64,000 nt of DNA from assembly GCA_041396125.1 (NCBI GenBank), contig JAWKZG010000014.1, positions 116,229 through 180,228 on the forward strand, in the 5' to 3' direction. Positions 14,236 through 64,000 of this stretch are shown piece after piece (within the stretch, counting starts at the first letter, position 1; the number at the start of each line of letters is the position of its first letter). The DNA comes from Gammaproteobacteria bacterium. GTDB taxonomy: Bacteria > Pseudomonadota > Gammaproteobacteria > Competibacterales > Competibacteraceae. The notes under the pieces are model-generated. The model was not told the DNA's origin, searched no databases, and worked only from the letters and a program-made list of their open reading frames with translations. A program made the position numbers and the translations under genes.

Positions 14236-14318
14236 TCATCTGTTATTGAGTACAGCCCGTTTAACGGGCTGTGCCAATAGTCTAAACGGTCGGCAATGCT
14301 GCACTTTAATTGTTTGTC

Positions 14319-14399
14319 ATTCCCGCGCAGGCGGGAATCCAGTGGCACTACACTCTTCACCATCATCTAAACTGTCGTCATTCCCGTGCAGGCAAGAGT
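14319..14399. repeat. Two dRS3-like inverted-repeat units (ATTCCCGCGCAGGCGGGAAT; second copy degenerate) separated by ~40 bp (NIME-like)
   Basis: Perfect ATTCCC-N8-GGGAAT palindrome at 14319-14338, related copy 14380-14399; related copies at ~26106, ~26600 and ~26824. Confidence 0.7.
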
Positions 14400-14537
14400 C
14401 CCGAGCGAAACGCTGGGATTACGCTTCGCTTCATCACCAGCCTACTTCATCCCGGTCTACGCGGGCTTTTTTAAGGTGTACATCGTAAAATGACGCTTAC
14501 TAAACTGGAAATGAATGAAAGGTTAAAACGGCTAATC

Positions 14538-15098
14538 TTAATCATTCAAATTTATTTTGGCTAACTGGAATGGGAGCAATTTCCTTTCATTATCTAGTGT
14601 CACAACCTCGAGTTCATGAAAGAGGCTGGCATTTAAATACTTGTAAGTCCATAGATAATTGAACTCGTGTTTTTCCGCCTCATATCTATCCGACACGATA
14701 ACTACTTTCAAAATCTTCGCCATACGGATTGCCATATAACAGAGCGCGCAAGGCTCTCCTGAAGCAATTAATGTTGCTCCTTTTAAAGAAAAGTCTTTTT
14801 CATTCTGTGACGCTTCTCTTATCGCCTGAATTTCAGCGTGTGCGGTACAATCCAGGTGCCTGGCGACTTGATTTACTCCTTTGCCAATAATCTCTCCATT
14901 CTGGTTAACGATAATAGCTGCAAACGGCAAACCACCTGCCTTGACATTGCTAATAGCCAAATCAAGAACGTTTTCTCCACATTTTATGAGAAGTTCATCA
15001 ATAATATGGTCACACATAGGCGATCTCATTGCTTGACGATAGAGCTGGGGTTGAAATACTAAGTTCTGCTGCAATACTTTCGGCTCGATTTTTTGCAT
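14538..15098 (-). CDS. Nucleoside deaminase (cytidine/deoxycytidylate deaminase fold; TadA/GuaD-like) with ~60-aa C-terminal extension
   Basis: CTAHAEIQAIREA (HAE) and ASGEPCALCYMAI (PCxxC) zinc-binding motifs; low-GC context. Confidence 0.75.
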   Translation of the reverse strand: MQKIEPKVLQQNLVFQPQLYRQAMRSPMCDHIIDELLIKCGENVLDLAISNVKAGGLPFAAIIVNQNGEIIGKGVNQVARHLDCTAHAEIQAIREASQNEKDFSLKGATLIASGEPCALCYMAIRMAKILKVVIVSDRYEAEKHEFNYLWTYKYLNASLFHELEVVTLDNERKLLPFQLAKINLND

Positions 15099-15440
15099 TG
15101 GCTACTGACATGCGATGTCTCTCGTCACCAAATTCTTGGTATTCAGAGGCAATCTCATACATTGTGTCCACCCCTAAATATTTACTCAGTGTCCGTAGGT
15201 GCGGTACCAAGTGACCAGAATCTTCTCGTATTGCGCCTTTTTCAAAACCAAACTCTCCGCTGGAGGTCACTATGATCAATGTCTTACCCGAGAGTATAGG
15301 CCGCAACGGGAAGTCCCCTCGTGAGAGATCAAAATCAAACGTTTTGTTTATACGTACAATTTGATCAAACCACGCTTTTAGCTGAGCCGGCATACCGTAG
15401 TTATACATAGAGGAATCAATATAACATTGGCCGTTGCCAT
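15010..15440 (-). pseudogene. FMN-dependent NADH-azoreductase (AzoR-like) C-terminal fragment
   Basis: MYNYGMPAQLKAWFDQIVR...LSGKTLIIVTSSG matches AzoR residues ~95-200; N-terminal ~90 aa missing/replaced. Confidence 0.6.
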
Positions 15441-15846
15441 CATAGCCATCAGTTGATCTGATAGTGCCAGCCCTCTTTCTGCGCCGGGGTTCTTTCTTCT
15501 GTGGGTAAACACCGCGCCAATCCAATCAGGTAATGAAATCCGGTGGATTTCACGCCAACATCACGATAGATATATCGAGTTTTTCAGGCCGATTCTGTTT
15601 CCATATGTGTCAACAAATCGGAGAGCGATATTTTTCGATATGGAATCGTGATCCGGGTTTGGGTTGTTCGCAGCTCTAACGCTTGAATCTATGTGTAATA
15701 ATGCTCATGTTCATTACCTTAGTTGATTAATGACAGGCGCTATTTTGTAAGTCTGTATAGAATAGTACAAACGAAAAAGTTACACTTACAGATGAATTTA
15801 AATCATCTATGCTATCGATGATTAGTGGTTAGTTTGGAGATTAAGT

Positions 15847-16268
15847 ATGCAGGTATCGTTACAGGCGCTGAAAGCCTTTGAGTCGGCTGCCCGTCAGGGA
15901 AGTTTTAAGTTGGCTGCAGAAGAACTTTCGCTGACGCCCACAGCCATTTCACACCACATTAGCAACCTGGAAAGTCGGTTAAATGTGAATTGTTTCATCG
16001 ACTGGGAAGGCGGATATCACTAACCGGAACAGGTATCAGATTAGCTAAAGCAACCGGACGGATTTCCGGAAAATCTGACAACGCTTTGGAAGAGGTGATG
16101 AAGGCTGGCAGTGCGGTCAGGGTGACGACGACATCATCATTAGCAGCTATGGTGCTAATCCCTTCCCAGCATGAATTTGAACAAGCTAACCCTGATATTT
16201 CTATGGAAATATCGACCGGCGAGTCGGTCGATAGCCAATCATATATCATTCCAATTCGGTCTTGGTGA
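15847..16268 (+). pseudogene. LysR-family transcriptional regulator, frameshifted and truncated
   Basis: HTH region MQVSLQALKAFESAARQGSFKLAAEELSLTPTAISHHISNLE then frame change near 15990; only ~140 aa total. Confidence 0.65.
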
Positions 16269-16844
16269 TGCCTTCAGTCGCTGAGGATTCTTGATGTCAT
16301 TAGATCTGAGTCATTCGAATGTATTTGGTGCTTATAATGACGTCTCCTTCTTGGCCTAATGAACCCATAACCTCTTTTACAACGGAGGAAAAATAAATCG
16401 TTACCGGATCCCTCCACTAGGCGCTTGGCTGGAAAAAATGGGCTGATGGGTCTAATATTAAACTCAAAATTTGGATCAAAGAGCGATCCAGCAGGCTATG
16501 GCAGGAAACGGACTTGTGTTCTGTTCCAGACGCTGACTAAAAGGCTGTTAAAATCTAACCTTCTACAACAATTTGAAACTCGATCAGTCTAATCAGACTT
16601 TTGCTATTACATACCAAATAAAGACAGCTTCGAAACTAGAAGTGCAGCCAGATTTATACATTGGATCGAAGATATTTTGAACCAATAATTCGTGCGGGCA
16701 CTTCTGGCTAACTGAGTATCCTCTAAAGCAAAATACCTGCATAACAAGTTGCAGCACACGGAAAAATTACTCGCTGCGCTCCCACTTCCAGAGCGTGGCA
16801 GAAACACCAACCGCTCGCAATGAGCGGCCTAGGGTGAATGTTTC

Positions 16845-17462
16845 GAGGACAGGCAGCTAGGAGTTATTAATCGGTGACAAGAGCTCAAGTCCATTAAGAG
16901 GCCCATTAAGCTCCATCAGACGTCCTGCAACAGCCAAAGAGCCGAGCGCAATTGGATGTAAGCCAAGTTCACCGATGAGTGTTTCTACAGTTGCCACTGC
17001 CGAGGGATCATCGCCCGCCAAAATAGAACACGTCTAACACTCGGCTCATGCGGTGCAAAGATTTTCAAAAGGCAGTGTGTTAAATGCCTTTACGGTGCGA
17101 GTGACGGTGCGAGCCTGGAAACAATCTCGCTACCCGAGTCGCCCTTTAAATCACCGACACGATAATCTGGTGCGTAGCTGAGAAATATATTGGTTGTGAT
17201 CACTAGAATATGTCCACCCCAATCCCTTTCCGGGTGAGCATCCGCACTTTAAGCCAAGGAACTGCAAGGAAAAACAATGTCACGTTTGCAGGCTTCGGTA
17301 ACTGACGCGGCGGTTAATCGATCATCTATATCCGCCAGTCGGTCTTGCAAACTTTCGCGCCCGCGGCTGTTAGCCACCAGCACTTCGGGGGCTGACGGCG
17401 ACGAACTGGGTCGCCAGTGTACGCCCAATTGTGGATGCGCCAATAATTCCAATCTTCATGGC
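16845..17462 (-). pseudogene. NAD(P)-binding oxidoreductase (NADPH-dependent F420 reductase-like) with frameshifts
   Basis: Minus-strand MKIGIIGASTIGRTLA Rossmann motif (17462 downward), frame changes to ...VLVANSRGRESLQDLA..., further fragment ~16845-17040. Confidence 0.5.
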
Positions 17463-17604
17463 ATATTCTCCAAAAAATCAATGATAGTAAGCGGGGATTT
17501 CAGGCTTTCGCTGAACGCCGCCCCTCCTTTTTGTCGGTGGGGCGGTTGCCTTCCATTTATGTTTCACGCAGACCAAAAACAGTGGTTTGCCTGGACGACA
17601 GCGA

Positions 17605-19499: not shown

Positions 19500-19808
19500 T
19501 TATAACCTGACTAGTTTGACTAGCAGCTTCCCAAACAATCAGAATATTGGTATATCAAGCAGTTACGATGGCGCAATTTGAGTCATCTTGAAAGTGCTGC
19601 TGATGTAACTCACAGGTATCATCGTTTCCCGAGTTTTCTGTAAATCCGATATCTGGGAAGAAGGATTTTGCAATAGAGAAGCCTTTGCCGCTTGGAACGA
19701 ATGGCTTCAGGCTGGTTAGTTTCATGATGGTTTACTTTTTTTTGCTGACATCTGATTTTAATGTAATCGTCCTGATACGAATCCGTTAACGATACCTGAT
19801 CGAGTGAT
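19500..19808 (-). pseudogene. Highly degraded integron-integrase (intI) 5' remnant
   Basis: Minus-strand translation TNKSPKSLDQV... parallels MNKLPILLDQV... of the intI at 58091; nucleotide similarity to 57990-58091 continues; start codon mutated (ACG). Confidence 0.4.
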
Positions 19809-19839
19809 TTGGGTGACTTATTCGTCCGGAAAATTTTAG

Positions 19840-19960
19840 GTACGTATAAAATTTATGTGAATTTTATCTTTCTGAATTTTATTGCTTTTATTGCTTTTAT
19901 TGCTGGGTGTTGACATTAGAAATTATGGGGGTCTATTTTGGCGTCTGTCTAAATTTAGTT
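19840..19960 (+). promoter_or_regulatory. attI-like region A with Pc-like promoter (TTGACA 19910-19915, TATTTT 19934-19939) ending at G|TT crossover (19958)
   Basis: ~80% identical to 58093-58217 next to intI; identity ends exactly after GTT as expected for attI x attC junction; contains 3x tandem TTATTGCT. Confidence 0.6.
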
Positions 19961-20042
19961 CGTCGCCATCAGAGAAAATCAGTAAGGTGACAAATTTAGG
20001 GTTTTCATCTCATACGCATGGGACCATAGCCGCGACTGGGTA

Positions 20043-21122
20043 TTGGCTCTTGCAGAGCGGCTTCGCAATGATGGAATCGACATTGTGCTCGATCAATGGG
20101 AAACGGTTCCCGGCGATATGCTGCCCAAGTTCATGGAATCCGCAGTTCGTGAAAGCGACTACGTGCTTGTTGTCTGCACTCCTTCGTATAAGAAGAAATC
20201 GGATGATCGAACAGGTGGAGTCGGCTACGAAGGGGACATCATGACCGCAGAGGTCTTCGCTCTCGAAAAGCGAGCGAAGTTTATCCCACTCCTCCGCGAA
20301 GGTGACTGGCGAGCGGCGTCACCGAGTTGGCTGCTGGGAGCCTATTATCTCGACCTGCGAGGGGAGCAATACTCAAGTGACACTTATGGCGAATTGCTTG
20401 ACCTTTTGCTGGGGCGTCGCAAGAAGGCGCCTGACCTGGGGACGTCTCGACCATCCTGGGCTGAGCTAAGTCCGATTGAAATCGTGCAAATTCCCCTCTC
20501 TAGCGAACTCCCTCAATTCTCCAAGGACGGATGGCTTACGCTTATAGCTCACGCATTGGCTAAGACGTTTAGTGACCAGCCAACCACGCGATTCGTCGGA
20601 CTGCTATCGCAACGGATCGTCGAACGAGATGGCAACGAGTTCACGGTGGTATCTATGACTGCACCGTTTTCCAGATTCCTGAAAAGCTATAAACTCTCAA
20701 TCTCGTCGCTGATGGAGGCTTCGCTAAGGCGGGACAGACCGGCAATGGAGGAACAGAAGGCAGACCTTGCTGATACGCTTTCGAAGTGGCGATACCGAGT
20801 AGAAGTGGGATGCGGCGAATCCTGGACGGCAAATCAGTTTGTTGTGGATGCTGAAACGAAGCTCATCGAAGTCACACCTGCCACTCTGGATACAAAGCAA
20901 AAGAAATTTTGGCGACCAAAGTCGACCAGCGAAGTTCTTGCTTTGATTGCGCATCTGAGTAATCCAATTGTTCAAATGAACATTGATGGTCTGTTAGAAG
21001 ATCCGAGGTTGACTGATTTGGTGAAAGACCTTTTAGATCATAAATACGTCAATATGGATCGCCTCCATGTGGCTTTGTCAAATCCTGAACAGTGGGAGTA
21101 CTCTGGTGATGAGGACGTTTAG
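20043..21122 (+). CDS. TIR domain protein with ~230-aa uncharacterised C-terminal domain (cassette A1)
   Basis: In-frame FRVFISYAWDHSRDWVLALAERLRNDGIDIVLDQWE...DYVLVVCTPSY fits TIR alphaA-betaB pattern; TIR homology extends upstream to ~19995 without canonical start (TAA at 19983; listed start is TTG). Confidence 0.65.
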   Translation: MALAERLRNDGIDIVLDQWETVPGDMLPKFMESAVRESDYVLVVCTPSYKKKSDDRTGGVGYEGDIMTAEVFALEKRAKFIPLLREGDWRAASPSWLLGAYYLDLRGEQYSSDTYGELLDLLLGRRKKAPDLGTSRPSWAELSPIEIVQIPLSSELPQFSKDGWLTLIAHALAKTFSDQPTTRFVGLLSQRIVERDGNEFTVVSMTAPFSRFLKSYKLSISSLMEASLRRDRPAMEEQKADLADTLSKWRYRVEVGCGESWTANQFVVDAETKLIEVTPATLDTKQKKFWRPKSTSEVLALIAHLSNPIVQMNIDGLLEDPRLTDLVKDLLDHKYVNMDRLHVALSNPEQWEYSGDEDV

Positions 21123-21132
21123 AGAAATGAGT

Positions 21133-21216
21133 GACGAACAAAGCCGTGCACCGGAGCACCCATTCACGCGGTTCATGAATTCAAACTCTTCCGTTCGTGC
21201 CCGGTGACGGCAGACG
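21133..21216 (+). other. attC A1 (inverse core GACGAAC ... GTTAGGC)
   Basis: GACGAAC complements cassette start TTCGTC; R' GTTAGGC consensus; 84 bp. Confidence 0.55.
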
Positions 21217-21266
21217 TTAGGCTTGCGTCGAGAAAATCAATCAAACTTCAATAAAGGAAAAGAATT

Positions 21267-21476
21267 ATGGCAACAACCATGTTTTTTGAAGAGCTCGTTA
21301 AGTGCCAGGGCGGAAAAGAAGAAATGGATATAGAATTCGGTCGATCCTCATTTTACGAAGAGGATAGTATATATCTGAAGGTGGATGGAAAGTCCATAGT
21401 AATGGACCGAGCGACCGCCAAGAAATTTGTAGAGGCCGCCTCTGGAGTTGGTCACTATTTTGGTTTTATTGACTAG
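21267..21476 (+). CDS. Hypothetical 69-aa protein (cassette A2, gene 1)
   Basis: ORF with RBS aaaggaaaag upstream; no recognisable domain. Confidence 0.4.
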   Translation: MATTMFFEELVKCQGGKEEMDIEFGRSSFYEEDSIYLKVDGKSIVMDRATAKKFVEAASGVGHYFGFID

Positions 21477-21491
21477 ATACTGGGATTATAA

Positions 21492-21755
21492 ATGCCAAAT
21501 ATTGATTTCAAAGATGTTGAAGCAATAGATCCGTCCACAATGGCGGTGTCATTTCCCGCTACCGTAGATGGAGTGCAAATTCGATGTGTCATTTCCACAG
21601 AAGCTTTACAAGATCACTTTAATGCTATGATTGATGATCAATTGGATGTGTTTAAATCAAACAGATATAGTATTGAATGTAAGGCCAGAGAAGTAATTGA
21701 GAGCGGTCGCTATGAAGCAGGCGGCAGCATTTTGATTCGTTCATCTGATTTTTAG
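21492..21755 (+). CDS. DUF1488 family protein (cassette A2, gene 2)
   Basis: 87 aa; VSFPATVDGVQIRCVISTEAL pattern resembles DUF1488. Confidence 0.55.
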   Translation: MPNIDFKDVEAIDPSTMAVSFPATVDGVQIRCVISTEALQDHFNAMIDDQLDVFKSNRYSIECKAREVIESGRYEAGGSILIRSSDF

Positions 21756-21757
21756 GC

Positions 21758-21866
21758 CTAACAAATTGCTGCACGCGGACACATACTGCTACGCTCGTTT
21801 TTGTGTGTCGCTGCGCTCCATTTTACACAAAAACGTTCTCCGCAGTATGTGCCGGTGAGCAAGGCG
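21758..21866 (+). other. attC A2 (GCCTAAC ... GTTATGT), long imperfect palindrome
   Basis: Inverse core complements cassette start TTAGGC; stems ACACATACTGC/GCAGTATGTG and CGTTTTTGTGT/ACACAAAAACG. Confidence 0.5.
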
Positions 21867-21890
21867 TTATGTGCCAGTCGCGAGAATTCG

Positions 21891-22193
21891 ATGCACCTAG
21901 TACCTCAATGGGATGAAATCAGGTTGATCGGCCAGTCCCGAATTGTCGGGTTGACTATGTTAGTGCCGTTCATTGGGTACCTACTACTTTTCAATGAATC
22001 CATCTGGGAATACTTCCGACTATCAACCGACCTCGTTGGTATAAAGCAGATCGAACCTGAATCAACCATTCTACGATTGCACTTTTTGTACTATGGCCTA
22101 ACGTTGGTAGGCTTAGCATCACTCCTTTACCAAGCAGTCTGCCCTCATGAGATCAAGGAGCATGGAAACGGAGTATGCCTATGTGAGTGGTGA
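21891..22193 (+). CDS. Hypothetical membrane protein (cassette A3), overlaps next ORF
   Basis: Predicted TM helices (IVGLTMLVPFIGYLLLF, LYYGLTLVGLASLLY). Confidence 0.35.
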   Translation: MHLVPQWDEIRLIGQSRIVGLTMLVPFIGYLLLFNESIWEYFRLSTDLVGIKQIEPESTILRLHFLYYGLTLVGLASLLYQAVCPHEIKEHGNGVCLCEW

Positions 22194-22551
22194 GTCAACT
22201 CTGATGACTCACGCTCGCTTTGCGAGTCTGGTAAATCCCTACGAAGAAAAACTTACGGAGGAGCCAGAGAAGTACTCGGAGTTAGAAGCCTACGTAAGTA
22301 GCTACAAAAAAGCGTCCAATCCAACCATGGACGTCTATTCTTCGAAGGAAGAACTACGAAGCGAGACTGCGGAACTTGAGCGAACTGCGTTCATAAACAC
22401 GCTGAGCTTCAATTGGCGATATCTATGCTCCAAGCACTTTTACACCAGGTTGGCTGTTTCTGCCCTCTACTTTTCTGGGTTCAGCTTGGTGTTGTGGCCA
22501 TCAGCGGTAGTGTTCGTTCAAGTCACATCTGGAATTCTGAGAGGCACATAA
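22147..22551 (+). CDS. Hypothetical protein with C-terminal TM segment (cassette A3); may be frameshifted continuation of previous ORF
   Basis: 134 aa ORF, stop embedded in inverse core ACATAAC. Confidence 0.35.
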   Translation: MRSRSMETEYAYVSGESTLMTHARFASLVNPYEEKLTEEPEKYSELEAYVSSYKKASNPTMDVYSSKEELRSETAELERTAFINTLSFNWRYLCSKHFYTRLAVSALYFSGFSLVLWPSAVVFVQVTSGILRGT

Positions 22552-22638
22552 CATGAAGTTGAAGTCGGACGTAGCAACCTGTCATCAAAATTGCTGCGCA
22601 ATTTTGCCGCCAGAACGACTACGCCGTTTAACTTGGTG
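22546..22638 (+). other. attC A3 (ACATAAC ... GTTAGGC)
   Basis: Inverse core complements cassette start TTATGT; 93 bp. Confidence 0.55.
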
Positions 22639-22664
22639 TTAGGCTATCAAGTAGGCATACAGCA

Positions 22665-23465
22665 ATGTTTGATAAGGAGTGGATCGAGAAAGCACAGAAG
22701 GTCACGGACGCGGAGTCCTGGGCTCATGGTGCCATGCTTGAACTAGATACCTCCGGTGGCATTTACCTCAACACACTTCGTATGTGGTATGAAGAATTTC
22801 CTGGATCAAAAAAGCAGAAGAAACCCCTACGACAACGGATCGAAAACTTTGGTAATGAAGACCACCTTGGTGGAGTAAACGAATTATCGTGGTGGAAATT
22901 TCTACAGAAAGGTAATTTCGGTGCTGAGCCAGTACCCACTGCTAGCAGCGCACGCCCAGATTTCAAAGTTCAGACACCGACAGAATTCTTCGTTGAAGTT
23001 TCAACGTTAAATGTTTCTGCTAATGAAAAGCAACAGATGGAAAGTGAAGGGGCTATTTCACTCAACCACGCGGAAACCCTCCGTCGCTTGTTGCTTAAAT
23101 CCACAAATGATAAACACGAACAGATGTCCTTTGCGTGCAACCAACGGCGCCCATGCTGCTTAGTGCTATTTGACTATATGACATGGAGCGCATTTGGCAC
23201 TCAATTTTTCCGCTATTTGGCAAGTTATCTTTTTCGCGAGAATGGAGGCTTCACGCAGCTGCCTACTGAACTATCTGCCCTTATCTATGTTGAAAGAAAA
23301 GTAATAGACGGGCACATTGGGTTAAGTCGTGATCGGTCAGCGGTGTACTACAATCCTAATGCGAAATACCCGCTCGCACCAGGAACATTCACTGAATTGC
23401 GGCAGTACTGGTACCAAATGGTGGAAGTCGAACCTCAATGCAAAGATTACTGGGTATGGCTGTAA
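22665..23465 (+). CDS. Hypothetical 266-aa protein (cassette A4)
   Basis: Clean ORF; possible nuclease-like RPDFKV...FFVEVST segment, unverified. Confidence 0.5.
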   Translation: MFDKEWIEKAQKVTDAESWAHGAMLELDTSGGIYLNTLRMWYEEFPGSKKQKKPLRQRIENFGNEDHLGGVNELSWWKFLQKGNFGAEPVPTASSARPDFKVQTPTEFFVEVSTLNVSANEKQQMESEGAISLNHAETLRRLLLKSTNDKHEQMSFACNQRRPCCLVLFDYMTWSAFGTQFFRYLASYLFRENGGFTQLPTELSALIYVERKVIDGHIGLSRDRSAVYYNPNAKYPLAPGTFTELRQYWYQMVEVEPQCKDYWVWL

Positions 23466-23481
23466 TTGTGGCTACGAGTTG

Positions 23482-23556
23482 GCCTAACAATGCCATTAAC
23501 ACGGACCCCAAAAAGCTACGCTGCGCTCCGCTTTGTGGGACCGGTTATGGCTGGCG
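23482..23556 (+). other. attC A4 (GCCTAAC ... GTTAGGC)
   Basis: Perfectly complementary R''/R' pair, 75 bp. Confidence 0.6.
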
Positions 23557-23581
23557 TTAGGCGTCACTAAGCGCTTCGGCA

Positions 23582-24055
23582 ATGAAATCTGAGTCCTATC
23601 GCGTTCGAGTCCTTGGCAGCTCTGACATTCAAGCAATGCGGGAAATGCTTGTCGCATTTGGCGAGGCCTTCGAAGACAAGCCGACTTACACCCAGCATCA
23701 GCCAACGGACACCTACCTCAAGGAGCTGCTCTCAAGCTCGACTTTCATCGCTGTAGCAGCGCTTTCTGAAGCAAAGGTCATCGGTGGCCTTGCGGCATAT
23801 GCGCTTCCCAAATTTGAGCAGGCCCGCTCAGAGATCTACATCTACGATCTGGCTGTACTAGAAAGCCATCGCCGCCAAGGCATTGCGACGGCGATGATTC
23901 AAGAACTCAAGAAGCTGGCCAAATCCATAGGCGCCTACGTCATCTTCGTTCAGGCAGATCATGGCGACGATCCGGCAATCAATCTCTATACGAAGCTCGG
24001 AGTTCGAGAAGATGTCCTTCACTTCGACATACTTCCTGGCGATGGTGACGCCTGA
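23582..24055 (+). CDS. Aminoglycoside 3-N-acetyltransferase, AAC(3)-I-like GNAT (cassette A5)
   Basis: Strong similarity to AAC(3)-Ia along whole length: [81 protein letters not shown]. Confidence 0.8.
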
Positions 24056-24115
24056 CCCTTCCATTGAGAGGTCGTTTTCCGGCCTACGGCCTCCAAGCGC
24101 CTCTCATGTCAAACG
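24051..24115 (+). other. attC A5 (GCCTGAC ... GTTATAC)
   Basis: Inverse-core-like overlapping stop codon; hairpin TTGAGAGG/CCTCTCATG. Confidence 0.4.
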
Positions 24116-24124
24116 TTATACATA

Positions 24125-24820
24125 ATGGATCCAAAGAAGCTGTTTATTGATGAGAGGTTAAAAGCCAATTGCGCCTATTGTGGTGCAGTCATGAATTCTA
24201 GGGATCACACTCCTTCTAAAGTATTCCTTGATGAGCCGTACCCAGAAAATCTGCCTGTCGCAGAAGCCTGCGCAAAATGCAATGGTGGTTTTTCTGCTGA
24301 CGAAGAGTATCTATCTTGCCTGATTGAGTGCGTAGTTCACGGGACAGCCAAGCCTGATGAAAGATTCAGAGATAAAGTGGCAAGAACTCTTGAAGCCCGA
24401 CCAGCCATCGCTAAACGAATCGAGAGTGGAAAGCAGTTGGATATTAGCAATAATCCAATTTGGCAACCGGAGGGGCCTCGAGTCAAGAATATTGTCCTGA
24501 AGCTTGCTCGCGGATACGTATCCTATGAGCTAGGGCTTCAGCATGTAGAAGAGCCGGTAATTATTGATATTGTGCCAAGTCCATGCATGACCGAAGATGA
24601 ATTAGAAGCTTTTAACACACTTGAGGAGCATGCTGGATTCCTATATCCAGAAATTGGCAGCCGTGCTTTCGTTAATTTACTGTCAGGAAAAGCCACAGCA
24701 TACGGTGGGTGGTATGTCGTGCAAGAAGGAAGATATCGATATGCCCTCGGTCAGTCAGCGGGTGATTGGGTGAAATTGGTGTTAAGTGAATATCTCGCAT
24801 GTCGCGTGGTTTGGGAGTAA
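24125..24820 (+). CDS. HNH endonuclease-domain protein (cassette A6)
   Basis: CAYCG...DHTPSK...CAKCN zinc-finger/HNH-like arrangement; 231 aa. Confidence 0.55.
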   Translation: MDPKKLFIDERLKANCAYCGAVMNSRDHTPSKVFLDEPYPENLPVAEACAKCNGGFSADEEYLSCLIECVVHGTAKPDERFRDKVARTLEARPAIAKRIESGKQLDISNNPIWQPEGPRVKNIVLKLARGYVSYELGLQHVEEPVIIDIVPSPCMTEDELEAFNTLEEHAGFLYPEIGSRAFVNLLSGKATAYGGWYVVQEGRYRYALGQSAGDWVKLVLSEYLACRVVWE

Positions 24821-24824
24821 TTAT

Positions 24825-24875
24825 GTATAACAAGGTGCCCAAGTTGGACGGCTTTGCCGGCCCTTGGCTTGGTAG
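24825..24875 (+). other. attC A6 (GTATAAC ... GTTAGAG)
   Basis: Inverse core complements cassette start TTATAC; short palindrome. Confidence 0.4.
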
Positions 24876-24920
24876 TTAGAGGAGAGTTAATGAATTGCCG
24901 GACTTGGAAACTGGATCTCA

Positions 24921-25860
24921 ATGGCGAATAAACCAGAAACAGCTTCAATCATACCGATACCTTCCGTGAAGAGGCTACTCAATGGCCCGAAGCGACAACA
25001 CTTTCTACCGAAATTCTACCTCGAAGGCTTTGCCATAGAGGATGGAATGGTCGGTGTTTGATCGGGAGTTGAACGAGATAAGGGTACAGCGGCCCGTGAA
25101 CACCTGCGTCATCGGACATTTCTACACAATGGAGGACTCAGGAGGGGCAAGGTTTCGACCTTGAACAATTGCTTTCCGAATATGAAAATAAGGCCAGTCT
25201 TGTTATTAAGAAACTGCGCCGCGCAGGAAGATATCAATGTGGACGAGCGGGCGGATTTTGCCATATTTGTAGCTTTAGCTGCATGCCGTACTCCTGACGT
25301 TGTGGATTCTCTTAAACTTTCAACTCCAACTTCATCAAAGATATGGCAAACCATATGTTTGCAGACGTTGACGGGGTTAAGGCACGAATTCGCGGCAAAT
25401 CTGACGTGCAGTTAACGGAGGAGGAACTGAGGCGGACGCACGCGCGCTTGTGGACTATGCGCAGAGCGGACGATATGAGGTAATTACGAACTGATGCGCG
25501 GGCCATTTGCATGGCGATGAAAATGGCTATGAGCATCGCGCCAATTTTGCAGGGCGTGACTGGATGGTTCTTCATCGTGATACCGAAAAGAAGTCTTTTG
25601 TGACCACCGATGCACCTGTTCTCCTAACCACGTTGGCTCCACGCAAGAAGAGCATTTGGGGTATCGGGTTCGGCAACATTGATGCCCTGGTACTGTTTCC
25701 CATGACGGAATCCTGCGGTTTGTTAATGTGCGGCACTGAGGGAGCACTGAGCACCGGAAACGTACAGATGCGGATAAAATACGCCGCATCAATTTGGCCG
25801 TCGCTGACCATTGCCAACGGTTTGTCGTTGGCCGTGACGAAGCGTTGGTTTGCTCATTAG
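24921..25860 (+). pseudogene. DUF4238 family protein with multiple frameshifts (cassette A7)
   Basis: KRQHFLPKFYLEGF and GHFYT motifs of DUF4238 N-terminus split across frames; later ORF 25507-25860 is the C-terminal part. Confidence 0.55.
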
Positions 25861-25936
25861 CAAATCGCTTATGTTTGGCAAACAAGAAGTGGCAACCCAA
25901 AATGCAAAGTACATAGATGACCTGAAATGAGGAAAA

Positions 25937-26035
25937 CTCTAACATTTGTGTCAAGTCGACGGGAATTTCGCTGGCGCTTCATTCCTGCTGCTTACCCATA
26001 CCGTTTGTCGCTACGCGGCGCAACCGGTCGTTCGG
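25937..26035 (+). other. attC A7 (CTCTAAC ... GTTCGGC), boundaries tentative
   Basis: CTCTAAC complements cassette start TTAGAG; TGTCAAG/CTTGACA stems. Confidence 0.3.
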
Positions 26036-26099
26036 CCTTGACAGAACCTGCTCCATTATCAGCGCTTGTATCTACAAAGATCCTTTCAGGCGATAATTA

Positions 26100-26180
26100 T
26101 CGTCATTCCCGCGCAGGCGTAACCAGTTCGGATCATTATCAGGAACATCTGATAGGCAGATCCAGACCGAATAAAGTGCC
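26100..26180. repeat. dRS3-like half repeat plus ~40-bp direct repeat copy 1 (TATCAGGAACATCTGATAGGCAGATCCAGACCGA)
   Basis: Nearly identical 38-bp sequence recurs at 26852-26890; ATTCCCGCGCAGGCG at 26106. Confidence 0.6.
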
Positions 26181-26364: not shown

Positions 26365-26814
26365 AACTATAAACTCCTTTTTCAAATTAACTAAACGTCC
26401 GGTCAAATGTGTTTGCAACTGCCACAGTGATGCTCGTGGACAGACAGCGTTCTCGTGTAAAACGAACCGCCAACGCAAGATAAAATCCGACCGCGCGCTG
26501 ACTTCAGCGCGCATGTTTCTGATCTTTAGCTCAGAATAGCAATAAAGCGGCTTTTAGTCCCTGTAACCTGATTTCCCAATCCCTGGGGCATCTTATCCGT
26601 GTCCTTTGTCATTCCTGCGCGTCCCTGCACGGCGTCTGTCGGTTTAATAGCCGCTTGTCTGCTTGGCATCCTGTCCGTATTTCCACAGTGTTCCTTGCTG
26701 TGGGTAGAGGGAAGTTTACGCTGAAGGCGTCAGTGAAGGGTCAAGAAGTTGTTATATTTGCGTTGGTGCCACTGACGATTTTGATCATAGGCCGGCACTT
26801 TGCTGCACATCGAT

Positions 26815-26900
26815 CAGCGATTGGTATTCCCGCAGGCAGGAATACCGTCAAGTACCAGTATCAGGAACGTCTGAGAGGCAGATCCAGACCGATTCCTTCC
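26815..26900. repeat. Degenerate dRS3-like palindrome (ATTCCCGCAGGCAGGAAT) plus direct repeat copy 2
   Basis: See copy 1; located at the 3' end of the aldo/keto reductase gene. Confidence 0.55.
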
Positions 26901-57497: not shown

Positions 57498-58091
57498 TCA
57501 GGTCGATACCGGCGTAGCTGGTATTAAGTGTTTGGCCTTAATTAGTTGGTCTTTTAAGGGTAGTAACAGATTTTCCGGAAGCATAGTCACCCGGTCCTTA
57601 TTACCTTTGCCTTCGCGAACGATGATTTCGCGCCGCTCAAATTCAATATCTTTGACGCGTAACCGCAAGCTTTCCAGCAAACGCATGCCTGTGCCATAAA
57701 GCAAACTTGCCACCAGCCACATGGTACCGTTCAATTCCGCTAGCAATGCCGACACTTCGCGTGGTGTCAACACCACCGGCAATCGTTTGGCTGCTTTGGC
57801 TTCCACCATTTCTTTCAACCACGGCAAATCGATATTGAGCACTTCTTTATAGAGAAAAAGTAAAGCCGATTTAGCTTGATTTTGGGTCGAGGCCGAAACC
57901 TTGCGTTCAACTGCCAGATACGTCAAAAAGGCTTCCACTTCTTTGACACCCATATCTTTGGGATGGCGCTATTGGTGGTACAAGATGAAACGCTTTGCCC
58001 AGTCGGCGTACGCGTCTTCGGTCCGAATGGAATAATGTTTGACACGTATCCGGTGACGAACCTGGTCAAGTAGTATTGGCAGTTTATTCAT
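57498..58091 (-). pseudogene. intI: Integron integrase intI: in-frame TAG (57969-57971) and loss of C-terminal half
   Basis: [84 protein letters not shown]... is the IntI N-terminal fold; only ~190 of ~320 aa present; catalytic RHRY C-terminal region absent. Confidence 0.75.
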
Positions 58092-58092
58092 C

Positions 58093-58217
58093 CGCAAAGT
58101 TTTAGGTTCGTATAATATTAATGTAAAGTTTATCTTTATGAATTTAATGGTTTTTATTTTTTGACGTTGACATTATAAAGTATGGCGGTTTATTTTTGCG
58201 TCTGTCTAAATTTAGTT
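58093..58217 (+). promoter_or_regulatory. attI-like region B with Pc-like promoter (TTGACA 58167-58172, TTATTT ~58189-58194); crossover G at 58215
   Basis: Divergent from intI start; ends GTT|AGCC; ~80% identical to 19840-19960. Confidence 0.6.
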
Positions 58218-58416: not shown

Positions 58417-58471
58417 GTCTAACAAGGCATTCAAGCGGAGCGTCTTTACAAGCCGCTCGCTTAGTTTATCG
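58417..58471 (+). other. attC B1 (GTCTAAC ... GTTAGGT), 55 bp
   Basis: Inverse core one mismatch from complement of cassette start TTAGCC; hairpin AAGCGGAGCG/CGCTCGCTT. Confidence 0.4.
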
Positions 58472-58488
58472 TTAGGTGATCAGCCGGG

Positions 58489-58863: not shown

Positions 58864-58930
58864 ATCTAACAAAAGCATCAACAGGGATGTCTGCTTCGCA
58901 GCCACCCGTTATGAAAATCGTTAGACCGAT
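58864..58930 (+). other. attC B2 (ATCTAAC ... GTTAGAC)
   Basis: Inverse core/R' pair flanking short palindrome. Confidence 0.45.
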
Positions 58931-60014: not shown

Positions 60015-60065
<51 letters not shown>

Positions 60066-61925
60066 AGCGTGTGTGCCGGGCATGGCACGAAACGAGTCGG
60101 GTGAGAGTCCCGATACCAGGTATTCGCAGAGCCGAAGGTTAGGAGAAGGGCAAGGGCGTCATCGTGAGGTGGGGTCTGTAGGAAGCCCAATCCAAAGCGG
60201 CGGGGCGACGAACAGGAACTGGATACGAGGTGTGACACCGACGGGGCCAGTGGGCACGTGACCATCAAGCCCTCCATCTGCACGGGTCGGTGTTTTATAA
60301 ATCCAGCGTCTACGTCGCGAACGTTTCGTGTCTTACCCCGGGAGGTCTGTCAATTGTTCACGGATCGAACTGAAACGGGAGTAATCGCGTTTGATCGGTT
60401 GGCAGAAGTCAGCAGCGGGCATAGTAGGCGAGATCTCACCGCCGAAGGCCCAAACCTTTGTGGAAGTGACCGCCGGTGAAGAACCCATCGAACGCCTCAG
60501 CCCCGCAGCTTGCGCTGCCTCTGGTGATGCCGGAGGAGGAACGATGTGTTGAGGATCCGGACGACTCACCTTCCAAGACGAGCGCTTCATCGCTCATGGC
60601 GCAGGTATTGGAGCGGGAGAATCTGCTACGTGCGCTCAGACAAGTCCAACGTAATCGAGGTGCGCCAGGCATCGACGGCATGTGTGTCGAACAACTGTCT
60701 GGCTATCTCACCCTCCATTGGCCGCGCATCCGGACTGAACTGGCCGAAGGGCGCTATCGCCCCAAGCCGGTTAAGCGGGTCCTGATTCCGAAGCCTGACG
60801 GACGGCAACGCAAACTGGGTATTCCCACGGTCCTCGACCGTTTTATCCAGCAGGCGATTGCGCAAGTCGTGCAACGGCACTGGGAGCCGCACTTTCATGA
60901 CAACAGTTATGGATTTCGTCCCGGGCGCAACGCCCATCAAGCGATCAGGCACGCGCAGAGCGCGATCCGAGGCGGCAAGCGCTGGGTCGTTGACCTGGAT
61001 CTGGATGCCTTCTTTGATCGGGTCAACCACAGCCGCCTGATTCGGCGGTTGTACCGTCACCTGTCTGAACGTGGCCTGCTGCAACTGATCACTCGCTACC
61101 TGAAGGCGGGGGTCATGACAGAAGGCCAACGACAGGCGAGCGCCGAAGGGGTGCCGCAAGGCGGCCCCTTATCGCCGGTGCTCTCCAACGTCGTGCTCGA
61201 TGAGCTGGATTGGGAGCTGCACCGTCGAGGCCACACCTTTGCCCGTTATGCGGACGACTGCCAGGTATACGTCAGCAGTCAGCGAGCAGGCGAGCGGGTG
61301 ATGGCTCGTCTACAGCGCTATATCGAGCGGACCCTTCGACTCAAGGTCAACGCCGGGAAAAGTGCCGTGGACAAACCCTGGAAGCGTAGCTTCCTGGGCT
61401 TCACCTTCAGCCGCCGGGGTGCCCGGGTGAAAGTGGCCGAGAAGGCCATCGACCGCCTGCAAGCCAACATCCGGCAGCTGAGCCGTCGCACGAGAGGCTA
61501 CAGTTTGCGTCAGATCATCGCTGAGCTGAAGAAAACCCTGCTTGGATGGAAAGCGTACTTCGACTTGAGCGAGGTACTGAGTCCGCTGCGGGATCTGGAC
61601 AAGTGGCTGCGACGTCGATTGCGGTGTTATCAGTGGAAGCAATGGGGCCGCTCGGGGTATCGCCGTCTGCGCAAGCTTGGCGTTCCCCGGGTACTGGCCT
61701 GGAATACGGCCAAATCGGCGCATGGGCCTTGGCGTATCAGTCACAGCCCTGCACTGTACCAGGCGATGCCGAAGCGTTACTTTAGGGACTTGGGGCTGCC
61801 GGAACTGGCAGCACGATGAACCTCACAAAGGAACCGCCGTGGTACGTGATCCGTATGCCCGGTGGTGTGGGAGGAGAGGGGCTGCGAGGCCTCTCCCTAT
61901 CCCGATTATACGTAAGTAATGATCG
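60066..61925 (+). mobile_element. Group II intron (bacterial class C-like, attC-associated); boundaries approximate
   Basis: 5' GTGTGCC... (GUGYG) right after a stem-loop; RT/maturase ORF in domain IV; GC-rich D5-like hairpin GGGAGGAGAGGGGC...GCCTCTCCCTATCCC and short D6-like hairpin near 61870-61920. Confidence 0.55.
60476..61819 (+). CDS. Group II intron reverse transcriptase/maturase (no endonuclease domain)
   Basis: RT blocks 0-7 (PKPDGRQRKLGIPTVLDRFIQQA, YADDCQVYV) and maturase X domain; 447 aa. Confidence 0.9.
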   Translation: MKNPSNASAPQLALPLVMPEEERCVEDPDDSPSKTSASSLMAQVLERENLLRALRQVQRNRGAPGIDGMCVEQLSGYLTLHWPRIRTELAEGRYRPKPVKRVLIPKPDGRQRKLGIPTVLDRFIQQAIAQVVQRHWEPHFHDNSYGFRPGRNAHQAIRHAQSAIRGGKRWVVDLDLDAFFDRVNHSRLIRRLYRHLSERGLLQLITRYLKAGVMTEGQRQASAEGVPQGGPLSPVLSNVVLDELDWELHRRGHTFARYADDCQVYVSSQRAGERVMARLQRYIERTLRLKVNAGKSAVDKPWKRSFLGFTFSRRGARVKVAEKAIDRLQANIRQLSRRTRGYSLRQIIAELKKTLLGWKAYFDLSEVLSPLRDLDKWLRRRLRCYQWKQWGRSGYRRLRKLGVPRVLAWNTAKSAHGPWRISHSPALYQAMPKRYFRDLGLPELAAR

Positions 61926-62299: not shown

Positions 62300-62484
62300 C
62301 AAGACGGCCAAGCTGTTCGCCTGTGGCTCACTCCGACGCTCAGCACTTCGCGCCTGCTCAGGCATGGCGTTCCCGCTCTTCTTTCCTAGTAAAGGGTTAC
62401 CACAATTGGATCAAAACCTAACGCCAAGGTAAGCGGCGCTCAGCATGGAGCGCTTGATCGGGCAAAAATGGCAAAGCCATGTGC

Positions 62485-62512
62485 TTGCATCTATACGGCA
62501 TGGCCGTATAAT
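62485..62512 (+). promoter_or_regulatory. Sigma70-like promoter of TA cassette (TTGCAT-16 nt-TATAAT)
   Basis: Near-consensus hexamers 17 nt upstream of toxin start. Confidence 0.55.
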
Positions 62513-62528
62513 AGGATTATGTTTACCG

Positions 62529-62854
62529 TAGTCGAAACGCCTACCTTTACAAAACTTGCCGCTGATTATTGGGATGAAGATGAGCGAGGGGAATTCGCTG
62601 CATGGATAGCATCTGATCCAGAATTTGGTGATGTAGTTCCGGGGTCTGGAGGCGTGCGCAAAATACGTTGGAACAGAAAAGGCAGCGGCAAGCGAGGTGG
62701 TGTCCGTGTTATCTATTTTAATCGACGGATTAATGGTGAAGTATGGTTGCTGTTGATTTACGCAAAAAGCGCTAAAGATAATATCCCCGCTCATATACTG
62801 AAAGAAATCAAAGAGGAAATTGAACAATGCCAAAGACAGAAAAAGAGTTGTTAG
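62529..62854 (+). CDS. Type II toxin, RelE/ParE superfamily (HigB-like, phage Gp49-like)
   Basis: VETPTFTKLAADYWDEDERGEFAAWIASDPEFGDVVPGSGGVRKIRWNRKGSGKRGGVRVIYF pattern. Confidence 0.75.
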
Positions 62855-63135
62855 AGCGAGATGCTAAGCGCGATATCTGCGCAGAACTTTTACAGTCTGT
62901 GCGAGAAATGAAAGCAGGTAAGCGCAACCGAGTACACCAAATAAAGATATCTTCGGTGATTGAAGCCCGTCAAAAAGTTGGATTGTCTCAAGCAGAATTT
63001 GCTGAGCTGCTAGGAGTGTCAAAGCGAACGCTTCAAGACTGGGAGCAAGGTAGGCGAGAGCCGTCGGGTGCAGCGAAGTCATTACTTGAAGTTGCAAGAA
63101 AGCGGCCTGAAGTATTATTAGAAATATTTAGCTAG
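62827..63135 (+). CDS. HTH XRE-family antitoxin (HigA-like)
   Basis: GLSQAEFAELLGVSKRTLQDWEQGRREPSGAAKSLL; overlaps toxin stop. Confidence 0.75.
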   Translation: MPKTEKELLERDAKRDICAELLQSVREMKAGKRNRVHQIKISSVIEARQKVGLSQAEFAELLGVSKRTLQDWEQGRREPSGAAKSLLEVARKRPEVLLEIFS

Positions 63136-63147
63136 CATTGAGCGCAA

Positions 63148-63242
63148 ACCTAACATCAGGTTGAGGCGGACTTTTTACAAACTGGCCCAACTTGAGTTCT
63201 GCCAGAACAGGCCAATTTGTAAAAAGCCTCTTAACCTGGGCG
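63148..63242 (+). other. attC B5 (ACCTAAC ... GTTATGT), 95 bp
   Basis: Long stems GGACTTTTTACAAACTGGCC/GGCCAATTTGTAAAAAGCC; R' GTTATGT identical to attC A2. Confidence 0.6.
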
Positions 63243-63430
63243 TTATGTGATTGTTTTATGAAATAATATCAAGAAAATGTGTACTAAAGTACCTGTGAGT
63301 GAGTTAGTCCAGCTTCCGATTACCTGGGTTAGAGGTGATGACGAATGACTTAAGACGGTGTTTAAGTCGTTAAAGTCAGGAAACTGTATCAAGCAACCCA
63401 TTAGACTACTAAATTGTGGCTGTGGAAAAA

Positions 63431-64000
63431 CCCATCTCTTTACACACAAGTCAAAAAGCCCCGATTTGCCGGGCATAGCGCAGGCCTGCGGTGAAATCCA
63501 TCACCCGCTGCAAGCCCAGCCAGAGGGTCTTTGCACCGGGCTCGCCATCGCCCTTGCGCCCTAAAAAGCCGCCCAGTCTGGCGATCATGCGCAAGGCAGC
63601 GTTGAGTGTGGGGGGCTGCTGGGGCATGGGCTGTTCGGCCAGTAAATACGCCCCCTGCCACTCCTCCTCAGCCAATACCAGGTTGACGTCCAAATCCGGC
63701 ACTGTGCGTCCCAGGCGCATCAAACGGCCTATACGCCAGCTCACGATCAGATACAGCGCTATAGCCCGCTCCATGCGCGCTAACGTAGACAGTTGTAGCG
63801 CTTCGAGCCGACAGCCCTGTTTGAGAATCAAAAAAAACAGTTCGATTTCCCAGCGTGCCAGATACCAGCTGATCAGCTCCCGTGCCGCCGCCTGATGGGG
63901 GATGTCGCGATTGCTCAGTAAACGCCACAGCACCGGCTTGACGCCCGCCGGGGCCTCGATTTCCTCGGCCATTAATAAATTCACCGTGAGTGCCGGCGCA
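63431..64000 (-). mobile_element. IS4-family (IS50-like) insertion sequence, right end; continues beyond window
   Basis: Terminal sequence CCATCTCTTTACACACAAGT resembles Tn5/IS50 outside end CTGACTCTTATACACAAGT; transposase C-terminus follows. Confidence 0.65.
63451..64000 (-). CDS. IS4-family DDE transposase, C-terminal part (N-terminus outside window)
   Basis: WYLARWEIELFF...IARLGGF motifs match Tn5 transposase (YRRRWRIEEFHKAWK...IARLGGFMD). Confidence 0.75.
   Translation of the reverse strand, partial: APALTVNLLMAEEIEAPAGVKPVLWRLLSNRDIPHQAAARELISWYLARWEIELFFLILKQGCRLEALQLSTLARMERAIALYLIVSWRIGRLMRLGRTVPDLDVNLVLAEEEWQGAYLLAEQPMPQQPPTLNAALRMIARLGGFLGRKGDGEPGAKTLWLGLQRVMDFTAGLRYARQIGAF

Follow-up and report, generated by a model that had tools for sequence, protein, structure and literature searches.

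The sequence analysed here is a stretch of 64,000 nt (the window) from contig JAWKZG010000014.1 of a gammaproteobacterium placed in the Competibacteraceae (assembly GCA_041396125.1). It was found to carry two integron loci 38 kb apart. Locus A, the subject of this report, comprises a putative cassette promoter (Pc) and an attI site, together termed platform A, followed by an array of seven gene cassettes with their attC sites, and retains only a remnant of an integrase gene (intI). The features of platform A are as follows (the slash in G/TT marks the crossover point):

19760–19825, minus strand: stub of intI_A of ~22 codons, its start changed from ATG to ACG, with one indel
19833–19861, minus strand: putative Pint-like promoter facing the lost integrase gene (TTCACA-17-TAAAAT), from a consensus scan only
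19877–19903, no strand assigned: three tandem copies of the 9-nt TTTTATTGC inside attI_A, read in the sequence
19910–19939, plus strand: Pc-like promoter of the cassettes (TTGACA-18-TATTTT), from scans of both platforms, 48 nt upstream of the crossover G
19941–19960, plus strand: attI_A core GCGTCTGTCTAAATTTAGTT, with the crossover G/TT between 19958 and 19959

The corresponding features of locus B are:

57498–58091, minus strand: intI_B pseudogene, matching positions 1–183 of 315 of TIGR02249, with TAG at codon 41 (57969–57971)
58092–58217, plus strand: attI_B and Pc_B, the counterpart of 19826–19960, with its own cassette array downstream
58417–58477, 58864–58926, 60016 onwards and 63148–63248: attC sites of the array downstream of attI_B

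Alignment of platform A (19773–19960) with locus B (58040–58217) by MAFFT and blastn gave 77–80% identity over 188 nt (E 2.6e-36), in agreement with the original prediction from the sequence, which had put the similarity at ~80%. Locus B was the sole significant second copy of platform A detected by blastn within the window. The final 20 nt of both platforms (GCGTCTGTCTAAATTTAGTT; 19941–19960 and 58198–58217) are identical, and the alignment breaks directly past the GTT triplet (19958–19960 in A and 58215–58217 in B), as had been claimed, with CGTC following in platform A and AGCC in locus B. The stub translates on the minus strand from 19825 as TNKSPKSLDQVSLTDSYQDDY, its locus B counterpart being MNKLPILLDQVRHRIRVKHYS, and the proposed decay of the intI start from ATG to ACG was borne out (TNKSPKSLDQV in A against MNKLPILLDQV in B). 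The likeness of the stub DNA to intI fades near 19760, past one indel. Locus A is not a complete integron, in which intI adjoins attI, as only ~22 intI codons are left.

The attI core of this clade of integrases, TCTRTCTAAATYTAGTT, was found directly upstream of intact intI in contigs L012, L013, L014/L034 (89% IntI identity) and L035 (77%), with a more diverged form in L039 and L040 (70–72% IntI identity). In all of these intI-bearing contigs GTT is followed by unrelated sequence. This agrees with the prediction of a second, intI-less attI/Pc platform with cassettes inserted at G/TT; the cassettes are joined at G/TT, and divergence sets in exactly past GTT in six independent sequences. Over the whole region of ~190 nt, A and B are mutually closest (78–83% identity, against 63–75% with L013/L014), and at 70–77% IntI identity the likeness is limited to the last ~17 nt of the attI region. 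Because the attI regions of the more distant integrases are alike over this short segment only, the lost IntI_A, to judge by its attI, must have been a close relative of IntI_B. The attI core pattern had no exact match among 185,579 species genomes or in JGI metagenomes and is therefore not a dispersed repeat.

The sigma-70-like promoter TTGACA-18-TATTTT faces the cassettes at platforms A and B alike. A TTGAC(A/T) hexamer with an A/T-rich -10 hexamer was also observed at a fixed distance from GTT in L013, L014 and L035, the spacer sequence being variable. The number of TTTTATTGC copies varies, with three in the window, two in L003 and L005 and, from the alignment, apparently one in L006. A LexA box was considered for the intI promoter region and was dropped, as the sequence has no CTGT-N8-ACAG match.

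At locus B, intI_B scored 241 bits against the integron-integrase model TIGR02249 (cut-off 265) and ends after ~197 residues in the sequenced strain. Alignment to intact alleles identified a clean loss of 424 bp at 57525/57526. A homology search returned full-length alleles of 321 aa (P0002 and P0003, 98–99% identical), which occupy the same locus in contigs L011 and L012. As in the window, their neighbours there are genes for an HD-domain protein and for a 3-hydroxyacyl-CoA dehydrogenase. The 424-bp deletion allele also circulates without the TAG codon (P0001 on L033). On their reading frames, both integrase genes of the window are dead in the sequenced strain, while sister strains keep an intact one at locus B. 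The integrase falls outside the mobile classes 1–5 (224 bits against the IntI1-type equivalog NF011946, cut-off 435), its closest named relative is the chromosomal IntI of Nitrosomonas ureae at 81% identity, and the flanks are chromosomal metabolic genes.

The cassettes of array A are listed below, named from Pfam, from an NCBIfam model (cassette 5) or from the open reading frames (ORFs):

19959–21216, plus strand: cassette 1, TIR-domain protein (Pfam TIR_2, E 6e-23); attC 21133–21222
21217–21866, plus strand: cassette 2, a 69-aa ORF and a DUF1488 ORF (Pfam); attC 21756–21872
21867–22638, plus strand: cassette 3, two overlapping ORFs (from the ORF list); attC 22546–22644
22639–23556, plus strand: cassette 4, 266-aa protein with no family match; attC 23482–23562
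23557–24115, plus strand: cassette 5, aminoglycoside acetyltransferase of the AAC(3)-I family; attC 24050–24121, R'' box GCCTGAC
24116–24875, plus strand: cassette 6, 231-aa protein with no family match; attC 24825–24881, short at 57 nt
24876–26036, plus strand: cassette 7, multiply frameshifted DUF4238-like remnant; attC from 25937 with a degenerate 3' end

Seven pairs of R'' (RYYYAAC) and R' (GTTRRRY) boxes were identified where they had been proposed. Six of the attC sites (A1–A6) are complete, and the seventh (A7) has a genuine 5' arm and a degenerate 3' end. The R'' box of cassette 5, GCCTGAC, has one mismatch in the AAC box (GAC). The four variable bases with which each cassette starts are complementary to the R'' box of the cassette's own attC in 28 of 28 positions, compared with only 15 of 28 for the adjacent R' box. 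Just 6 of 5040 permutations equal this result, all of them trivial swaps among three identical boxes. Such complementarity is the signature of once-circular cassettes inserted at G/TT, and so the predicted junction rule stood in full, while the claim of seven cassettes each with its own attC has to be qualified for the 3' end of site 7 and the box of cassette 5. Alignment of the arms showed a common order of R'', spacer, 5 bp, bulge, 3 bp, bulge, 3 bp and bulge, with the single-base bulges restricted to the R''-L'' arm and in plus orientation throughout.

Structural and sequence-based scoring single out the same sites. Among 2530 AAC...GTT pairs on both strands, the seven sites took ranks 1, 2, 5, 5, 13, 16 and 33 in a helix scan, site A2 having rank 2. 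Bottom-strand folding gave z-scores of -2.6, -4.5, -4.3 and -4.0 for A1 to A4, weaker values for A5 (-1.75) and A6 (-1.1), and ~0 for A7, which has no significant structure. A covariance model built solely from trimmed sites A1–A4 was run over the whole window, and its best matches outside the training set were B2, B3 and B1 (E 6e-4 to 4e-3), the next background match having an E of 0.24. This model cannot span long attC loops and missed its own long training sites.

A two-arm weight matrix, from which the AAC/GTT columns were left out, was trained on 78 attC sites from 25 unrelated metagenomic loci, the sites having been picked by structure alone from arrays upstream of intI. Applied to the 2530 candidates, it scored A4 at 24.7 (rank 2), A1 at 21.7 (rank 3), A5 at 12.7, A6 at 10.3, A2 at 7.2, A3 at 3.9, and A7 at 9.5 or 2.3 depending on whether its end is placed at 26036 or 26009. 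All seven sites score above 0, against a background mean of -39.4 (sd 12.9), and the 30 best pairs all lie within the two arrays. In a half-site scan of ~128,000 start positions on both strands, the eight best 5' arms were all candidate R''-L'' arms on the plus strand, among them those of site 6 (13.0) and site 7 (12.5, the seventh best). The R' box of site 7 may be GTTTGTC (26003–26009), which the helix criterion favours (helix score 8.0 against 4.0), or GTTCGGC (26030–26036), which the sequence matrix favours. Rejection of the sites by an attC model would have spoken against the prediction, and they passed both the covariance-model and the weight-matrix tests.

Other approaches were less informative. 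A naive scan for AAC...GTT palindromes returned 205 matches and was non-specific, a strict minimum-free-energy fold filter was too tight (2 matches), and a covariance model from a single sequence (R1) was too weak as a bootstrap. An Rfam scan of the window at gathering thresholds gave no attC family match, only group II intron matches. Outside the array, an attC-like 5' arm at 16740 resembles that of A2 by eye and was not counted, having no fold (z -0.8) and a background full-site score. At this position (16740–16790) a 27-nt stretch like the A2 R''-L'' arm (GCATAACAAGTTGCAGCACACGGAAAA) is followed by the motif CGCTGCGCTCC shared with A2 and A4, and may be a relic or a chance resemblance.

Sister contigs, found by means of the flanking SDR protein, are ~95% identical to the window from 14.6 to 19.96 kb, and the match ends at exactly 19960. 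Contigs L001/L004, L003 and L005 have the intI stub, the deletion junction and attI in common with the window at 90–96% identity. The bases past GTT are AAAT in L001/L004 (leading into a HAD-like ORF), AGGC in L003 (a 129-aa ORF) and ATAG in L005, and the first-cassette DNA of these contigs had no match anywhere in the window. The deletion of intI_A appears to predate the diversification of the first cassettes, because one scar carries four junctions ~200 bp away, and a trans-acting integrase would therefore have served attI_A. The obvious candidate is IntI_B, because the attI core is identical and intact alleles exist in the population. Chimeras created by the assembler at k=141 are unlikely, as the exact repeat shared by attI_A and attI_B is <30 nt. 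The chances that cassettes were turned over at attI_A in trans after the loss of its integrase are put at even or slightly better.

Locus A is a cluster of attC sites without an integron integrase (CALIN), with a retained attI and Pc, formed by deletion of intI. It has seven attC sites within 5 kb and no functional intI nearby, the nearest intI being the 66-nt stub and the next beyond it the pseudogene 31 kb from the end of array A, and IntegronFinder would label it a CALIN. It shares with other CALINs the occurrence of attC sites, two or more in number, without a functional intI nearby and cassettes that are mostly of unknown function. It differs from them in that its origin is directly visible from the 22 codons left of intI and from attI and Pc, which are complete. 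Loss of intI is among four proposed origins of CALINs, and a recognisable intI pseudogene was reported beside only 15 of 279 of them (Cury et al., 2016; PMC4889954). The pseudogene search in that survey was aimed at the C-terminal domain and would miss both pseudogenes of the window, and for this reason CALINs without an intI pseudogene may have been over-counted. The original prediction also held that two platforms on one chromosome are uncommon, which was overstated, as 20% of the genomes with an integron have more than one IntI and CALINs are abundant (Cury et al., 2016; PMC4889954). The criteria for a sedentary chromosomal integron are presence in all genomes of a species or >19 attC sites (Cury et al., 2016); the four to six sister-strain contigs which reach the site all have platform A, and array A has only seven cassettes.

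The closest biological parallel is the ilvD integron of Xanthomonas, in which, according to the account of Gillings et al. (2005) given in bioRxiv 10.1101/2025.06.18.660453, intI has often been inactivated by stops, frameshifts or large deletions while the arrays persist. Both systems are chromosomal, with an integrase gene knocked out and an array that remains. As far as that account goes, identical arrays are usual in Xanthomonas among strains with the same intI lesion, and there is one platform, whereas strains with platform A differ in their first cassette and the strain of the window has two paralogous platforms.

Class 2 integrons likewise possess attI, a promoter, cassettes and a non-functional integrase (an internal stop in intI2), and change of their cassettes depends on an integrase in trans or on suppression of the stop codon. 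They are clinical elements carried by Tn7, and their integrase gene is of full length, interrupted by a single nonsense codon, whereas locus A is chromosomal and environmental and is without 93% of its integrase gene. Complete chromosomal integrons of the same IntI clade (P0002/P0003, Nitrosomonas ureae, L013 and L014) have the same attI core, TCTRTCTAAATYTAGTT, the same promoter position and the same attC architecture; they encode a 321-aa integrase, and locus A encodes none.

The anatomy of locus A as a degenerate integron can be stated with high confidence, and the best explanation overall is that it is probably the remnant of a chromosomal integron. A deletion took the integrase gene save for its first ~22 codons and left the intergenic module with Pc, the accessory repeats and the attI core with its G/TT crossover point. 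The seven cassettes, inserted earlier by attI x attC recombination, have persisted as well. Since Pc and attI survive, array A may still be transcribable from Pc, and an integrase provided in trans may still be able to dock at attI_A, the integrase of the paralogous integron 38 kb away being the natural candidate. Turnover after the loss would best explain the different first cassettes on one deletion. In the sequenced strain both arrays would now be frozen and decaying, because both integrase genes of the window are dead, unless another intI is present elsewhere in the genome. Signs of decay are the frameshifted cassettes 3 and 7, the start-less cassette 1 and the degenerate last attC. A more tentative proposition, with odds somewhat short of even, is that the orphan Pc-attI module has been retained and serves, without an integrase of its own, as a second site of docking and expression for which the paralogous integrase acts in trans. 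If it were true, the strain would have two platforms and one integrase, and the loss of intI would not freeze an array while a compatible integrase circulates in the genome or population.

Alternatively, platform A could be a dead fossil whose cassettes were inserted under an intact intI_A, with the variation being older than the deletion or arising by homologous recombination between strains living side by side, and with attI_A idle today. The inactivity of both intI copies in the window and the degraded appearance of cassettes 1, 3 and 7 and of the last attC suit this explanation, as does the association of inactivated intI with static arrays in Xanthomonas, in the terms in which bioRxiv 10.1101/2025.06.18.660453 cites Gillings (2005). 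Homologous exchange could equally account for the carriers of one locus B deletion which differ in their first cassette. However, a single shared deletion allele at locus A bears four different junctions, with breakpoints all exactly at G/TT, and as only ~200 bp separate the scar from the crossover point, a separate homologous crossover within that interval would be required for every variant unless the deletion is older than the junctions. We consider a fossil rather unlikely on these grounds. It is far less probable that locus A came from the locus B integron, as a piece recently split off or copied by rearrangement or segmental duplication, the usual route to a CALIN. The proximity of the loci (38 kb apart on one replicon) and the insertion sequence (IS) and group II intron in array B would fit such an event, but the platforms are only 77–83% identical while strains differ by ~5%, locus A possesses a separate intI stub and a separate attI, arrays A and B have no cassette in common, and the same platform A occurs in independent assemblies. 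Finally, the shared 130–190 bp might be an unrelated element, a repeat or a regulatory one, with the attC-like palindromes being chance structures or ordinary terminators, given how often simple palindrome scans match across the backbone. This is contradicted by the presence of just two copies in the window, by the lack of any core match in the 185,579 species genomes and JGI metagenomes, by the position of the element next to intI genes wherever it is found, and by the independent attC models, which single out exactly these sites, for which the junction-complementarity rule holds. The likelihood of a repeat family spread over many non-integron loci, which would have undermined the original prediction, is accordingly negligible.

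Several observations weigh against the proposed remnant integron with cassette turnover in trans. The window and L033 both carry the 424-bp deletion in intI_B and differ in their first cassette at that locus, so that a third source of integrase or homologous exchange is needed, which weakens a simple service of attI_A by IntI_B. Intact intI_B and platform A were recovered from the same studies, on contigs that are not linkable to one genome. The differing first cassettes at platform A could predate the deletion or derive from homologous recombination between strains. The frameshifts in the low-GC parts, including those of cassettes 3 and 7, may be assembly errors and not decay. With regard to the attC sites, the covariance model trained on array A gave no significant detection of the attC sites of a clinical class 1 integron, its non-significant matches there falling in inter-cassette gaps.

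Most CALINs have no visible origin, and locus A shows the integrase-loss route directly, with scar, attI and promoter still present. The apparent turnover of cassettes at an integrase-less attI is an interesting and testable feature. Together with the sister contigs, the locus offers a natural test case for whether integrase-less arrays stay dynamic via integrases in trans, which bears on how silent cassette reservoirs feed mobile integrons. Array A includes an aminoglycoside resistance gene of AAC(3)-I type.

As to the cassettes themselves, array A has a G+C content of 48.1% compared with ~57% in the backbone, in line with the low G+C content noted in the original prediction. In the TIR gene of cassette 1, an in-frame TAA (19983–19985) is not followed by any ATG, GTG or TTG before the domain begins, and translation from the first usable start, TTG at 20043, would leave out the domain's first strand; the gene is a pseudogene or else has an unusual start. 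The two ORFs of cassette 3 are probably one frameshifted membrane protein gene. The attC arms of cassette 4 are near-identical to those in the unrelated arrays L053 and L055. Cassette 5 is a resistance-type cassette within an environmental chromosomal array. Its ORF (23582–24055) scored 230.8 bits against NF033083, above the NCBIfam equivalog cut-off of 200, and the protein shares 63–67% identity with AAC(3)-Ib, -Ic and -If, which are plasmid-borne. The DUF4238 match of cassette 7 is weak (E 3e-5). Exact-protein look-ups of the cassette 5 and cassette 6 proteins and of the right-flank ABC ATPase matched no record.

With regard to the origin of the two platforms, either duplication or two acquisitions from related donors would account for them. 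In relatives at ~86% protein identity, represented by a 7.17-Mb genome and a 660-kb contig, no integron separates the HD-like gene at the locus B site from the gene that follows it. The B integron was therefore either acquired by this lineage or lost from others. A search for an empty locus A site via the Xsc homologue in the related 7.17-Mb genome found that synteny was not conserved, and a genome scan with the flanking LysR protein returned only distant Alphaproteobacteria (identity <=78%) and no empty site. The closest named relatives of the backbone, at 78–79% identity, are uncultured Competibacteraceae-like Gammaproteobacteria, and no close relative was found among GTDB species representatives.

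In array B, contig L033 (1–660 and 1260–1472) carries a different first cassette at attI_B, with an HNH-like ORF after GTT/AGGC, and departs from the window from 26 nt beyond the deletion junction; turnover, homologous exchange and insertion are all possible causes. A group II intron lies inside an attC of this array (60016–61915), with Rfam matches to domains D1–D4 at 60158–60450 and a reverse transcriptase/maturase ORF at 60476–61819. The intron apparently starts at ~60069 (GTGTG), just past the stem of the attC at 60016, which is split from its R' box, and it resembles the attC-targeting class C introns. The cassette at 62468–63248 encodes a RelE-like toxin and an XRE/MqsA-like antitoxin and has a strong attC (63148–63248). 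Upstream of it, the opposite strand has an attC 3' arm ending at 62416, which hints at an inverted or rearranged site. An IS with a Tn5-type transposase starts at 63431 (63431–64000). In three sister contigs (L004, L008 and L010) this IS end borders the position equivalent to 16500 of the window, and the element is therefore mobile in the population.

Platform A is housed in a low-GC block (14.3–26.1 kb) with palindromic repeats of the ATTCCCGCGCAGGCGGGAAT type at both ends (14316–14401, 26102–26126, 26605–26620 and 26826–26892). In the left part of this block (14600–17470), genes for an F420-dependent oxidoreductase, a LysR-like protein and a flavodoxin-like protein are split over several frames and are intact in L001; the splits reflect either real decay or indel errors of long-read assembly in AT-rich sequence. 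A 37-nt repeat is also present at the end of the block, at 26134 (26134–26170) and 26856, the two copies being 92% identical.

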